The position numbers and the translations under genes were made by a program. Below, one piece after another: positions 27,501 to 33,500 of a DNA stretch of 64,000 nt. Each line of letters opens with the position of its first letter. The stretch's first letter is position 1. The stretch is from Lingula anatina (lineage: Eukaryota; Animalia; Brachiopoda). Below the pieces are notes generated by a model. It was given only the letters and a program-made list of their open reading frames with translations. It was not told the origin of the DNA and did no database searches. The stretch is taken from contig CM120640.1 in NCBI GenBank assembly GCA_051362555.1, forward strand, positions 54,662,788 through 54,726,787. The letters run 5' to 3'.

Positions 27501-30500
27501 CTGGAATTCAGTTTAAGGAATTCTGCCCAAAAGATAACTGAATCTTAATAAAGATTTGTTGTAATTGGTTTTTATAAATACATATATAGTAGGTGTTGAC
27601 AGCTGTTTTCTAACTCAATATAACCATACCTAAAAATTTATTTCGTCCAGTATTTTACATGAGAGTAATGATCATAATGCATATAACAGGATGAAGATAT
27701 GAGCAGTGAAGGTCCGAGGATTGAGGCTATCTTGGCAGAAGAAGATGTAGATATTCTGCCATATATTGGATGGAAGGAGAAGGAAGAGATTCTTAACAAG
27801 CAGGAGGAAAAACGGTTAATATTTCATCTGACCTGTAAAGTTCTTTGACATGTTTTTAGTCTATTGTCTTGTCTGGAGAGATAAGGCAGTTTGTTTCCAG
27901 TGTAATTTGTTATCTAGCCCTGATTTGAAAACAAAGCCTTGCCTTAGAGGTGTGATAAAATGTTTTATTGCAAGAACATAAAATTCCTTCTTGCAAATTT
28001 GCGAAAGAAATTGCCCCAGGCCTGATATTCTGCTGAGTGGGATGATATGTGCTGTGTATGTACTAATTCTGTTTATTTCTTTTGCTTATAAAATGTGGTC
28101 TGTACAATTGCTTAAATAGTGGCCACCACCTTGAAAAAAGTGTTGGATGTTTTTGTTGTCCTGAATCTTCATTTTTCAAAGAAGTGACATTTATGTTTTG
28201 TGCAGTGAATTATTTGAGGCCTGATCAAAGATTACATATGATTGCAATAAATGCATGCAACAGTTCACTTCATGAAAATTATGTAAAAAACAGTCCTGCT
28301 ATTTTGATATTGAAAATTTTATACGTTTGAGTTAAGAAATTAATAAAGCAATAGATGACAAGTATTAGAGTATTGTTAAAGACATCTAAAATGTGTTTGT
28401 TCCTTGTTTTTATTTCAGATTCCCACCAATTAACACCAAACAATGAAAACATTGCATCTAAATTGTCAGTAAAGATGATGGAAAAGTGAGAGAAATATGT
28501 AACAGCTATTTGATAGTGGGACTTAGAATACAAGTCACCACAGAATCTGATTTGAACAAAACAAAAATGGCTTGATATATCAAACGTTAGTAAAGTATTA
28601 TGATATATGTTGTTTTGTTTTTTTTTTCAAAAAGATCGACTCGAGCAGAAGAGGAGGGAGAATCTTCAGATGAAGAGGAATATGGTGAAGATCTATTTTT
28701 GTGTGATGATGGAGCAGATTATGGTGAATATTTAAGCTAGTCCAATTGAGTTTAAAGAAAAAAGGAACCATGTGCAACTTTGTTATATACTATATTTAAG
28801 GCTAACATATTATTTAATCTTTGTGTGAAAATTTAATTTAAAAAAAGGTGTAACATACATTGTATGCCTCTACCTCTCCAGAGTTCTCACTATAGTGAGA
28901 TTGTAGCATGTTTTCAATGAAGTGTGTTCTAGACGGTATTTTTCTTGTTAAATAGTCTTGTAGATATATAATGTAGACGTAAAAAAAGGTTATATGGTTC
29001 TTCAGGTTTTTTAGGGGATAATTCTAGAGAGGGCTCTGAGGACTTCTCCCAACATGAAGTCAGTCCTGCTTACTCCCCAACCAGTCCCTCTTTCTATCAA
29101 CCTGTTGCTGAGCATTTAGAAAGCAGTTCAGACATGGAAGGTAAGAGAGATTAAAAAACATCTTATCAAATTACTTCTTTTATTGTAAAAATGAAAATTT
29201 AAGTTTCTTATTTTTATCTTCTGATTAAGATTTAAATGTAATGTCTGAACTTGCACTGAAATAAACTTTATCACTTTTTTGATAGCCTAATCTGAAGAAA
29301 GTCGTACGTGTAAAGATACATATTTTGCATTAAATTTTGATACGTAAATTGTTACATGAAAATCAGTTGTGAATCTATAGAACATGATGACTATTTATAC
29401 ATTGCAATTTATTAAAATTTAAGATATGGTCATGTTGGAAGGGGCTATTATGATACAATTTTAATTTATTTCCTATTTATTATATTTTTCAGACCTAGAC
29501 ATGCAGTTATTTGACTTTGACACAGATTCTGTCAAAATGGGAGCTAGAATGGAAGAGGAAGAAGGAGAAAAAGTAAGAAAAAAGAAGAAAAAAACTGGGA
29601 TAGACATTAGTAAAGAAATTAAGATGGAAGTTAGTGAACAGAAAGGTGGAAAACTGTCAAATCTCATGGAGCGTTCTGAAGAACTTCAGTCTATGTCTGC
29701 ATCTTTTGCTTTGAATGCAGACAAACCCAAGGGTTTCTTTCCTAAATCAAGAGTTTCTTTTTTGAGTTCTGATGAACCTGAAGTGCAACAAGCTCAGCAG
29801 TTAACTGCTGCTCCTGAGCCACTCACAGGTTCATTTCAGTTACAGGTCTCAGCACCTCAGTCACTGGGGTTTTCTCCTAGAGAAAAACAGTCTTACCCAA
29901 AGCAGGCACAGCTGCAGGGTTTCACATTTGGAGCACAAGTTTCTGCACAAGACCAGCTATCTGCTTTTAAAGCGCCAATGTCAAATCAACCGTTTACTTT
30001 TGGTGCAGCAGCTCCAATGTCATCTGTTGGCTTTGGAGCACCAGCACCTATTTCTAATGCAGACCAGACCCTTTCATTTGGGGTATTTCCAGTGAGAGGC
30101 CAGGCCCCTGTATTTGATGGTCAACCTCCTAGTAATGACCAGACACCTATGTTTGGCTCCAGGGCACCGCCTCTCAGAAGGGCTCAAGTCCCTCTTTTTG
30201 GAGCAAGATATACTGATTCAGCCCAGCCTCAAGCATTCTCAATACCATCATTCTCATCAACTCGGTCCACTGGCTTTGGAGCCCCAGTTTCAGTGGCCAG
30301 CAACTCATTTGGATTTGGAGCACAAGCTTCAGCATCAATCCAGACTCAAATATCTCAGACACCTGCTGTAAGTTTTGCATTGTCTGCCCCAATGTCAGCT
30401 GCTGGGGGATCACAGAAAGGTGGTCATCCAGAGCCATCTCAGTCAGAAAGCATATCATCTGTTGCCAAGCCAGCATCTCCAAGAACATTTGGAAGTTTGT

Positions 30501-33500
30501 CTGTTGATTCTGGTGAACCTGGAGTTTTGTTTAAATCAAAGAAGACAGCCAGTGAGAGAGGCAGAGGCGGGTATAGTTTTGGAGGAGTAGGAGCTCCCTT
30601 GTTTCACGCTGCTAGTCAGTCAATAGAGAAAGTTTCACTGAAGGCACAAGCTGAAGAACCACCAAGGACAGAGCTATTGAAAGGGGTTAAACCAATCTTA
30701 CAACCTGCAAAGTTACAGTTGTCAACTGAAGCACCACACCCACCTCCATTAACTGGAGGAGGTGCACCACCTGGACCACCACCACCACCACCACCACCTC
30801 CACGTACAGCAACGCAACGATTACGATCAGCAGACGGATATCTATCAATGGGAGTTAAATCCCCGCCTTCATTACCTAAAGCAGGGGTACCACCACCACC
30901 ACTGCCACCGCCACCTGGAGCAGCAGTACCACCACCATCCCCACCACCATTACCTAGAGCAAGGGTAGCACCCGCAGCCCCACCACCTGGAAGAGCAGTA
31001 CCTTCACCATCACATAGTACAGAGACACAACCCAAAGTGATGTGGAGGAAAATGAAGGTACCAGCTGATAATGCCAAGAGGAAAATGAGTAAAGAGAGTC
31101 CAAAGGAAAAATCCAGTGAAGCTGTTAGTATTGACCCACCCCCACAGAAATCATCACCAGAGGCAGAAGTAGCAGAAATTGTAAAGAAAAATCTAGCTTC
31201 AGTCAAATTGAGATCAGCAGGTTCAGTGGTTCACAGAAAAGTGTTTGGTGAGTCAGAGCAACAATCATTAACAACAGAGATAACAAAGAAAATTGAAACC
31301 AAGCTTAGACAAATGCCAGTAGATAAAGGATCAATAGACCAACAAAGGGGAAGGAAAACCCTCGGCAGAATAGCTGGAGACAGATTAACCAATCAGTCTA
31401 TAGACAGAGTTATAGATTTGGATTCTTCCTCTTCATCTTCTCAAGACTGGTCATCCTCGGATGAAGAATGCAAAGTTTCAGTTATTGGTATGTAAATGGA
31501 ATACCTGTGATTCTTTTGTCATTCTTTCTTTCTGTTATGAAACATAAAACCCTTCAGTAAACAACGCATACTTAATAGGGGATGTCCGGGATAGCCTATT
31601 TTGAACATCTGCGCAGCAGATGACGTCAAACGAGACCTGGATTGGAGCGAGATTTCACGAGAGGTGGGGTTAAAATCTGCCATTGAAACTTCTCTCGCGG
31701 TCAGGCACGAGTCTATGTTTTAGGATTGCATTGAGTAAAATTTGGCGTTGTCATGTAATTTGAGATAGAGCAACGCAATGGCGAATTGCTAATGTTGTGT
31801 CGAAGGGTGCATTGCAGATAAAGTATAGCGAGAAAACCAGGAAAATGACTATGGATGACGGACACGACTGGCGAGAGAAGTGAAGTGAAGAAAGAGAAGT
31901 TGGGCTTGATTAGATTAAAAGGACTAAATGCCGAAATATTTAAAGTACAGATCAGGTCGCAGTATTTTGTAGAAATAAAGGGACCAACTGCAGACAACTC
32001 GCACCCTGCACGTCACTGGCTCCATGGCATCACCGTACAGACCGTATCATCAACGGTCGAGGGGCATATTAATAAGTAAGTTTTGTGTGTAGTTTACAGG
32101 ACACCATGGTTTATTAATGTAATACAGCCCTAGTACTTGTGATTAATAGTCTTTTACGGTAACTATATCAGACAAATTTGCTTGTACCATTCCTATCTCC
32201 ATATAACGTGTACCTGATTATGAAATACTGGTGAACCTTCGACACCTATTAAGTATACACAATGTTCAGTTGTAACATTCCATGCCGGGTGGTCAGTTAT
32301 GATAATTGCAATTTGCAAGTAAAGTGGAAATTAGAGTTGGTATTTTACAACAACGTTTATCACATAATGATATATATTTCAGAAAACTAAGTGAGTTATT
32401 TTTTATTTATTTTAGAGCATGACAGACACAGCACGTTATTGAACCAGTCAAGAACTGCGAGAGTCATGTGGTCAGGATAATCAGATGTTGAAGATTGCTC
32501 AGTGTATATTAATCTCTTATGTCCTTAGTTATTATGTTGTTTACTTAATTATATCAGGAGTCAACAGATGGCATTTTTTTTCTGGGTGTCACTTACAGTA
32601 TCAGGCGTTTTCTTTATTACTTTAAAATGAAATGTTTAGTTTTATGAATATATATATGTATATAGGCCTATGTATTGTACTGCACTAGTGATTTAATGAA
32701 GAAAATTATTTTACTTGCTAGTATCATTCTTATGTTACTGTAGTGACTTTTTTTAATAACTATATGACACCTGTTTTTCATATCATTTACTCAGATCACA
32801 AATACAAGTTCGCCTGTGATGTGTTTATTTGTTGCATTTGTGTATAACTGTCAATAAAATGCAATGATTTTGTGAAAATTTCAACTTATGTGTTGTCCAT
32901 TTTAATACTTTCTTTTGTCATCTTTCCTGTCATTTAAGTCGGATCTGATCACAATGAAACTTACATTTTGTGAATGCTATCCATTAGTTTCTATAGCATC
33001 ATTTTCATAAGTAAATAAATGAAGAAAATTAACCTTATAATCAAACTCGAGCTTTTTGAATTAGTTACTATAAATTTAGTGAAATTAAATCAAAGATGCA
33101 GGCAAGTCTAATGTTCTGATATGGCATCCATCCATGTGTAAGTTCAGCTATTTTTCAAGTAAAGAAATCGCTGCTCTACTTCCTTGTGGACTCCATATTT
33201 TAACCCCACCTCAAGGCAGATCTCGTAAAATCACGGGGAAACTTGGTCTTCTCGTTGAGAGCCCGGACAGCCTCTATTATGACTATGTCACAGGTCAGAT
33301 TGAAATCCAGGCAAATTAAGCAAAACTGCCAATCTTGCCTGTGACAGATATATACAGTAGAATACAATTGAATTCCTAAACAGATTTTGTAATTTTGGAA
33401 AGGATGACGAAGTGCATTTTTAATGTTTAATTTAATTAAAATTAATTATTTGCACAACTTTGATGATTTCTCATCTTTAAAATATCACTTATTATTCTGT

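Follow-up and report, generated by a model that had tools for sequence, protein, structure and literature searches.

The 64,000-nucleotide stretch of Lingula anatina DNA analysed here (contig CM120640.1 of assembly GCA_051362555.1, positions 54,662,788 to 54,726,787 of the forward strand; hereafter the window) carries a gene for PARP4, the ADP-ribosyltransferase tethered to vaults. Its long linker, between the vWA domain and the MVP-binding (MINT) domain, is real and expressed. Comparison of homologs suggests that the linker of PARP4 is disordered and assembled, in modular exons, as a string of copied pieces of central cell proteins; the Lingula linker would be an eroded, short-motif version of such a string. 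As judged by alignment, such pieces exist, occur nowhere but in the linker, frequently show truncation or alteration, are conserved relative to fast-changing flanks and are swapped between paralogs. We lean towards reading this string as a multi-bait decoy array.

The domain order in Lingula PARP4 is BRCT, a WGR/HD-like region, the ADP-ribosyltransferase (ART) domain, VIT, vWA, linker and MINT (Table 1). Pfam matched BRCT, PARP, VIT and vWA in the exons, and tblastn with two homologs (Patella and Owenia) established the 5' exon order and an intact H-Y-E triad (LMHAS, GIYFAD and DDEYAI, aligned to the homologs; triad as defined in PMC2964712). A vWA exon is 100% identical to a public protein model annotated as Lingula anatina PARP4-like (P0001). 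That model reads through the donor site at 27814, and the linker and MINT are therefore missing from its annotation. Conserved exons behind the vWA domain match human PARP4 1042-1095 (E 3e-11). MINT was reached by homology in two steps: the last Lingula exon matches residues 1554-1641 of Amia PARP4 (P0110; E 3e-8), and the MVP-binding domain of the human protein (1570-1712) in turn aligns with Amia 1505-1647 (E 2e-33). The Lingula MINT exons gave no match when searched directly against the PDB. These anchors bear out a first-pass annotation, made from the letters alone, that had placed the linker between the two domains. Pfam found neither NB-ARC/NACHT-LRR families (Lingula exons and 45 homologs scanned) nor a FIIND-CARD module (Lingula exons and homologs scanned), and by homology the gene is a member of PARP4 (clade 5) rather than of an NLR or tripwire family.

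Four RNA-seq runs (6-25% of each being read) were placed on 25500-35500, where joints cover 25734-34334 only. All linker-exon joints are GT..AG and, summed over the runs, are carried by 13 reads (27814-28635), 29 reads (28723-29006), 41 reads (29140-29493) and 25 reads (31487-33563/33566; 20+5). Skipping of a linker exon was not seen among the 15 joints listed, and the earlier proposal that these exons are spliced into PARP4 mRNA thus holds. Two acceptors 3 bases apart, 33563 and 33566, are both used in RNA (20 vs 5 reads). The three linker exons encode 741 in-frame residues. In a single-sequence structure model, 534 of the 664 residues of exon 3 have a predicted local distance difference test (pLDDT) score below 50, and helices are predicted at residues 556-583 and 586-605. 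Two of the exons are phase 1-1, as several module exons of a homologous locus (L009) appear to be by eye and without RNA; this would be compatible with exon shuffling. At 29500-29544 the runs diverge strongly: X4 and X5 are fixed for six substitutions that fall within 12 bases, and X7, which appears to come from a more distant strain or species, has an in-frame insertion of 6 bases. The segments 31512-32200 (intron) and 34850-35500 (downstream) show reads of both strands and numerous loose ends, and are probably dispersed repeats.

Pieces of host proteins are readily recognised in the linkers of homologs. They derive from actin (D-loop), 14-3-3, ubiquitin, VAMP, Hsp70, calmodulin and Snf7, and further from the H3 tail, the ribosomal P-stalk, WASP-type VCA and Ran. 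Inspection by eye was the basis for calling SNAP25-like coils and for taking the EF-hands as calmodulin. Precomputed Pfam tags among the 120 homologs listed comprise actin (34), ubiquitin (25), Hsp70 (11), 14-3-3 (9), Synaptobrevin (6), EF-hand (4) and Snf7 (4). When 21 homologs chosen for their extra Pfam tags were scanned, 20 gave a match to such a hub family, always behind the conserved core. PDB searches confirmed an actin 8-73 piece (E 2e-31), which is accompanied by the C-terminal peptide, and an H3 tail in L009 (E 1e-10), and one Pelomyxa protein has a Ran copy (E 7e-53).

Recurrence was counted in 123 proteins, 73 with both anchors, that carry 43 invertebrate genus labels. Among these 43 genera with a complete linker, 35 have one piece or more, 24 two or more and 16 three or more, with up to seven kinds of piece per genus, and actin, H3, P-stalk and C-terminal domain (CTD) motifs occur in none of 71 cores of the same proteins. 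A later search supplied a held-out set of 132 new proteins, 81 with tails of at least 100 residues, for which the patterns had been fixed beforehand. Here the P-stalk recurred in 8 tails, the CTD and the ubiquitin end in 5 each, the actin loop and WH2 in 3 each (shuffles giving at most 0.15 for all of these) and the actin end in 1. Invertebrate linkers have a median length of 911 amino acids, as against 202-686 in nine vertebrate linkers.

Extra families were also present in 17 of 24 chosen distant proteins, among them ones from Heterostelium, Cavenderia, Dictyostelium purpureum, Pelomyxa, Hydra, Macrostomum, Entosiphon and Diplonema, which add Ras-family GTPases, eIF5A, kinases, PTB and Slu7 to the catalogue. 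Dictyostelid tails combine 14-3-3, phenylalanine-glycine (FG) motifs, polyproline, WH2-C-acidic, CTD arrays and P-stalk tails, and WH2 and C motifs are present in both sponge and dictyostelid homologs, in a full proline-WH2-C-acidic series. Pelomyxa PARP4s (among P0219, P0243, P0229, P0254 and P0241) carry the Ran copy, an R-SNARE and a Ras-family copy without its first 21 profile positions. Proteins of Entosiphon and Diplonema carry 14-3-3 plus eIF5A, or ubiquitin, and the pattern may reach beyond amoebae and animals. At a single locus, L009:9248-16213, 14-3-3, ubiquitin-like and Snf7 pieces stand together with actin, H3-tail, P-stalk, CTD and FG ones. Linkers also differ between tandem PARP4 copies of the same contig: a long array of CTD heptads is present in one (L026:13648-15237; 13 Pfam CTD repeat matches) and an actin start, R-SNARE and polyproline in another (L029:13054-15237), Pfam having been run on L026 and on L028, which is near-identical to L029. 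The annelid-like loci L004-L025 are mostly too short to reach the linker, and the large exon of L025 gave no Pfam match.

By alignment to their donors, the copies appear to be tails, loops, coils and surfaces rather than working cores. Actin pieces cover about positions 5-74 of a 410-position profile, each N-piece located being the same N-terminal stretch; 14-3-3 is represented in animals by its second half, the SNARE coil lacks its anchor, and donor tails are placed internally. Of 25 ubiquitin copies, 15 have GG-P as their end; in phylogeny these cases are not independent of one another. A proline after GG hinders deubiquitinases. The actin piece is 84-88% identical among the oysters having it, or among sponges, compared with 64-84% for the core and 8-36% for neighbouring stretches. 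Over five phyla the D-loop is at least 80-90% conserved per column and the flanks about 20%, and the nucleotide loop has drifted. In its conservation the actin piece matches the enzyme core.

Content is nonetheless exchanged between close relatives. Dysidea paralogs with 93-97% identical cores carry actin, SNARE and VCA pieces in one case and Snf7 in the other, Branchiostoma paralogs equally alike in their cores (93-97%) carry 14-3-3 or PDZ, and Mytilus paralogs actin or calmodulin plus Snf7. At least 11 changes of the actin piece, and 11 of the CTD, are required on a core tree that was rooted at its midpoint and whose deep nodes are poorly resolved. Among the Lingula allele variants listed (40 of 435), the linker has 7 changed and 3 silent codons and the core exons 2 and 3, numbers too thin to be read further. 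Positive selection is published for the mammalian exon only; it was described for the disordered human exon 30, together with a proposal of pathogen recognition (PMC4038475).

The Lingula linker itself was first described as a patchwork of host-hub motifs, and all the motif strings then quoted are indeed present in it. They had been picked after the fact, and recurrence in homologs is the real test. Four kinds exceed shuffles and recur in other phyla. The CTD heptad YSPTSPS is found in 14 of the 43 invertebrate genera (0.07 in shuffles), the Lingula copy matching the Pfam Rpb1 repeat PF05001 at E 0.0019 and 18.8 bits, below the 20.3 cut-off. The lysine run RKKKKK has counterparts of at least five lysines in 15/43 genera (0.21 shuffled), and the polyproline tracts, with a 9-proline run in Lingula, have counterparts of at least six prolines in 35/43 (6.3 shuffled). 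FG motifs, set in S/G/P/Q spacers, occur 12 times in the 741 residues, against 2.6-3.2 in shuffles, none of 5000 reaching 12. FG enrichment is family-wide, fish included: it was seen in 40/72 homolog linkers (one zero-length linker being dropped) and 24/81, compared with 2/72 and 3/81 for the control dipeptide FA. Pfam Nucleoporin_FG matches P0027 and P0224 and gave no match in linker exons 2 and 3 of Lingula.

Two of the original assignments did not survive. The supposed WH2-like helices match neither Pfam nor profiles made from real PARP4 WH2 or C motifs, and the first of them ends in a copy of the actin C-terminus (VVHRKVF). The VIDL proposed as a SUMO-interaction motif (SIM) is at chance level (P ~0.09) and is not conserved, with 1/43 genera against 0.69 shuffled and 1/81 against 0.40. 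The acidic stretch with tryptophan that follows it, whose profile score was equalled in 11 of 2000 shuffles, is possibly a remnant of the VCA acidic motif. A P-stalk identity is unsupported in Lingula: the profile score for the acidic patch of linker exon 1 was reached by 132 and 74 of 2000 shuffles, and ESSSDMEDLDMQLFD gave a weak blast match (E 0.31) and a negative profile. SH3, LIR and FFAT patterns in the Lingula linker are at chance or absent. The patchwork of host mimics is strongly supported at the level of the family, where homologs have domain-sized pieces, and falls for the SIM and WH2 of Lingula. A shared V[SM]WR motif, KVMWR in Lingula, is present in 4/43 genera and in 2/81 held-out tails and fits the PP1 RVxF/W pattern. 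SEGYHSG, at 33583-33603 just before MINT, is shared by Lingula with Owenia and amphioxus (4/43 genera against 0.85 shuffled, a weak signal) and resembles a beta-TrCP degron.

Two pieces had been missed. One is an eroded R-SNARE (VAMP-like) coil without membrane anchor, which matches Pfam Synaptobrevin at E 0.055 over the whole open reading frame and at 0.00098 over a segment chosen afterwards; against a profile from six other PARP4s, none of 2000 shuffles scored as high. A PDB sequence search with this remnant gave no match. The other is a copy of the actin C-terminal peptide, in which VVHRKVF begins at 31226 and valine replaces the last cysteine of actin. The version in the sponge Dysidea, GPSIVHRKVF, aligns to actin GPSIVHRKCF, and the motif occurs in 6/43 genera from five phyla (profile, 0/2000 shuffles). 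Profile tests found no actin-N, 14-3-3 or SNAP25 piece in the Lingula linker. Searching with the Lingula linker itself returned no homolog and no Atlas match, the linker being too divergent for an informative search.

We favour, on balance, the multi-bait array because the copies are tails, loops and coils, tethered flexibly beside an ART with an intact triad, and turn over quickly. Bacterial and viral proteins often target these donors or use them as cofactors. A microbial protein seeking actin, a SNARE, ubiquitin, 14-3-3, the P-stalk, the CTD or FG motifs would meet the copy, and would bind, modify or cut it instead of the donor. PARP4 would then ADP-ribosylate the microbial protein; alternatively, that protein might be held in the vault through MINT, or the release of PARP4 from the vault wall might serve as a signal. 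More tentatively, and short of an expectation, the array could be an ancient multi-bait immune sensor common to amoebae and animals, with the vault as trap: one protein would display a changing set of those host surfaces that come under pathogen attack, and engagement would be coupled to ADP-ribosylation or sequestration.

By its anatomy the linker might work like an integrated decoy or a bait region with many modules. The bait region of alpha-2-macroglobulin is a disordered, fast-changing stretch of substrate for foreign enzymes, as the PARP4 linker may be; PARP4 has no thioester. In the integrated decoys of plant NLRs (PMC11062475), a candidate immune protein carries fused copies of effector targets, and these vary between relatives. 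Fused copies of other host proteins are found in the PARP4 homologs, in Lingula as short or eroded ones only, and content varies between close relatives; in contrast to the plant case, the scaffold is a vault ADP-ribosyltransferase and not an NLR. The tripwires NLRP1 and CARD8 (PMC8591160) present a disordered, fast-changing stretch as substrate to foreign enzymes, as the linker may, but PARP4 has no FIIND-CARD and its putative baits copy host proteins, not viral cleavage sites. Human PARP4/vPARP (clade 5) has the same domain order and a long disordered linker in one large exon (exon 30), which was proposed to meet pathogen factors (PMC4038475) or to undergo viral cleavage or modification (PMC10450202). 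The accessible text of these two papers names no homology for exon 30, whereas invertebrate linkers are longer and hold recognisable host-protein pieces.

Some of the pieces are on record. Perina et al. 2014 (PMC4245714) described 14-3-3, actin and ubiquitin add-ons in PARP4-like proteins of amoebae, lancelet, sea urchin, Capsaspora and a choanoflagellate; the accessible part of that paper mentions neither truncation nor swapping, and no SNARE, H3, P-stalk, CTD, Hsp70, calmodulin, Snf7, Ran or FG pieces, and that of PMC2964712 mentions no such add-ons. We did not find the breadth, truncation and swapping of the pieces in print, where figures and supplements (e.g. Perina Fig. 1B) may list more add-ons, nor a decoy reading of PARP4 in the literature searched, whose coverage largely excludes subscription journals. 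A 2026 preprint (10.64898/2026.05.01.722283) reports that the vault protein TEP1 contains a TIR-like NADase and connects vaults with immunity, its accessible text making no use of the word decoy.

Several observations weigh against a bait array. The Lingula linker holds no domain-sized piece, and its WH2, C, SIM and P-stalk calls fail. Eight of the 43 invertebrate genera have no piece at all, and a piece (P-stalk only) is present in just 2/9 genera of vertebrates, the group for which selection is published (PMC4038475). In the 81 held-out tails the H3, SNAP25 and R-SNARE patterns found nothing, one R-SNARE being detected there by Pfam, and the dictyostelid 14-3-3 copies are near full length. 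The homologs are automatic gene models, and some extra domains may be fused neighbours (kinases in P0246 and P0210; P0059 and P0111). Conservation of a piece would be equally expected if it were bound by a host partner. The donors are mostly abundant housekeeping genes, making a capture bias plausible. Finally, PARP4 is described as docking inside the vault, which limits access (PMC12280208).

An unlikely alternative is that the pieces engage whatever their donors normally bind (importins, profilin, Arp2/3, CTD readers, elongation factors), the linker acting as a scaffold or cargo adaptor; that it would thereby load vault cargo, or place vaults at the pore and cytoskeleton, we rate no higher. 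Perina et al. indeed read their add-ons as links to signalling and the cytoskeleton (PMC4245714), and loss of PARP4 changes the human vault interactome, although importin-beta and IPO7 are discussed among the hits common to PARP4-depleted cells (PMC12280208, section 10). The full proline-WH2-C-acidic series of sponge and dictyostelid linkers and the family-wide FG enrichment also suit such a role. A fixed scaffold, however, should not swap modules between paralogs, as with actin for calmodulin plus Snf7 in Mytilus and 14-3-3 for PDZ in Branchiostoma, and many pieces are without their working parts.

Neither of the remaining explanations fits as well as a scaffold or a bait array. It is improbable that the linker senses host stress, with the cell's own proteases, oxidases and kinases that act on actin, H3, the CTD and SNAREs acting on the copies too and so switching PARP4. 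The copied stretches are modification-rich tails and loops, as this would predict, and MICAL2 is an actin-loop oxidase. MICAL2 co-precipitates with human vaults (PMC12280208), yet host enzymes change slowly, leaving rapid module turnover and mammalian positive selection without explanation, and the actin piece is in 0/9 vertebrate genera examined. Least probable is neutral accumulation, in which fragments of highly expressed genes gather in a disordered tether that tolerates them, and the short motifs are noise of low-complexity sequence: the abundant donors, the patchy distribution on the tree, the eroded Lingula pieces and the failed SIM and WH2 calls agree with it, but not the contrast between the actin D-loop and its flanks over five phyla, the identical stretch covered by every located actin N-piece, the same kinds of piece recurring in dictyostelids and animals, or the purifying selection on pieces relative to flanks that is indicated at the protein level.

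If the bait array is correct, PARP4 linkers would document, in readable form, the conflict between hosts and pathogens across eukaryotes, and vaults, whose function is still called unknown in the accessible parts of the vault literature cited, would gain a concrete one. The integrated-decoy principle would then apply to an enzyme outside the NLRs, in animals and amoebae, and positive selection on the mammalian exon would have a possible explanation. Under a scaffold role too, the linker would list candidate vault partners.

Table 1. Features of the PARP4 gene and its linker in the window
Feature	Positions	Strand	Evidence
PARP4 gene	15573..34638	+	Pfam on exons; tblastn with Patella and Owenia PARP4; P0001 match
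Linker exon 1	28635..28723	+	RNA joints
Acidic patch, EEEGESSDEEEY	28648-28683	+	in linker exon 1
Linker exon 2, phase 1-1	29006..29140	+	RNA joints
Pol II CTD-like heptad, SPA-YSPTSPS-F	29062..29094	+	Pfam PF05001, below cut-off
Linker exon 3, 1995 bp, phase 1-1, predicted disordered	29493..31487	+	RNA joints; structure model
Basic run KVRKKKKK, like a nuclear localisation signal	29570..29593	+	string present
Eroded R-SNARE (VAMP-like) coil without membrane anchor	29639..29725	+	Pfam and profile
FG-rich tract, 11 FG, 3 FxFG	29921..30583	+	motif count
Polyproline region	30740..30991	+	string present
KVMWR, shared V[SM]WR motif	31034..31048	+	profile, 0/2000 shuffles
Two predicted helices (first described as WH2-like)	31160..31309	+	single-sequence model
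Actin C-terminal peptide copy, SAGSVVHRKVFG	31214..31249	+	profile and homolog alignment
VIDL, then acidic stretch with Trp	31409..31465	+	VIDL at chance level
MINT (MVP-binding) domain exons	33969..34638	+	homology via Amia; RNA joints

Elsewhere in the window, a 194-amino-acid open frame on the reverse strand (13093-13674), upstream of and opposite to PARP4, is likely a gene and has no clear Pfam family. A basic helix-loop-helix gene lies at 2552-3121, also on the reverse strand (Pfam HLH, E 3e-14), which we take to be Olig-like. Downstream, a tandem array with a unit of about 146 bases (36900-38500) is visible as repeating open frames, and a single-exon reading frame of 534 amino acids (47711-49312, forward strand) has a weak Pfam Fam20C match and presumably encodes a four-jointed kinase.

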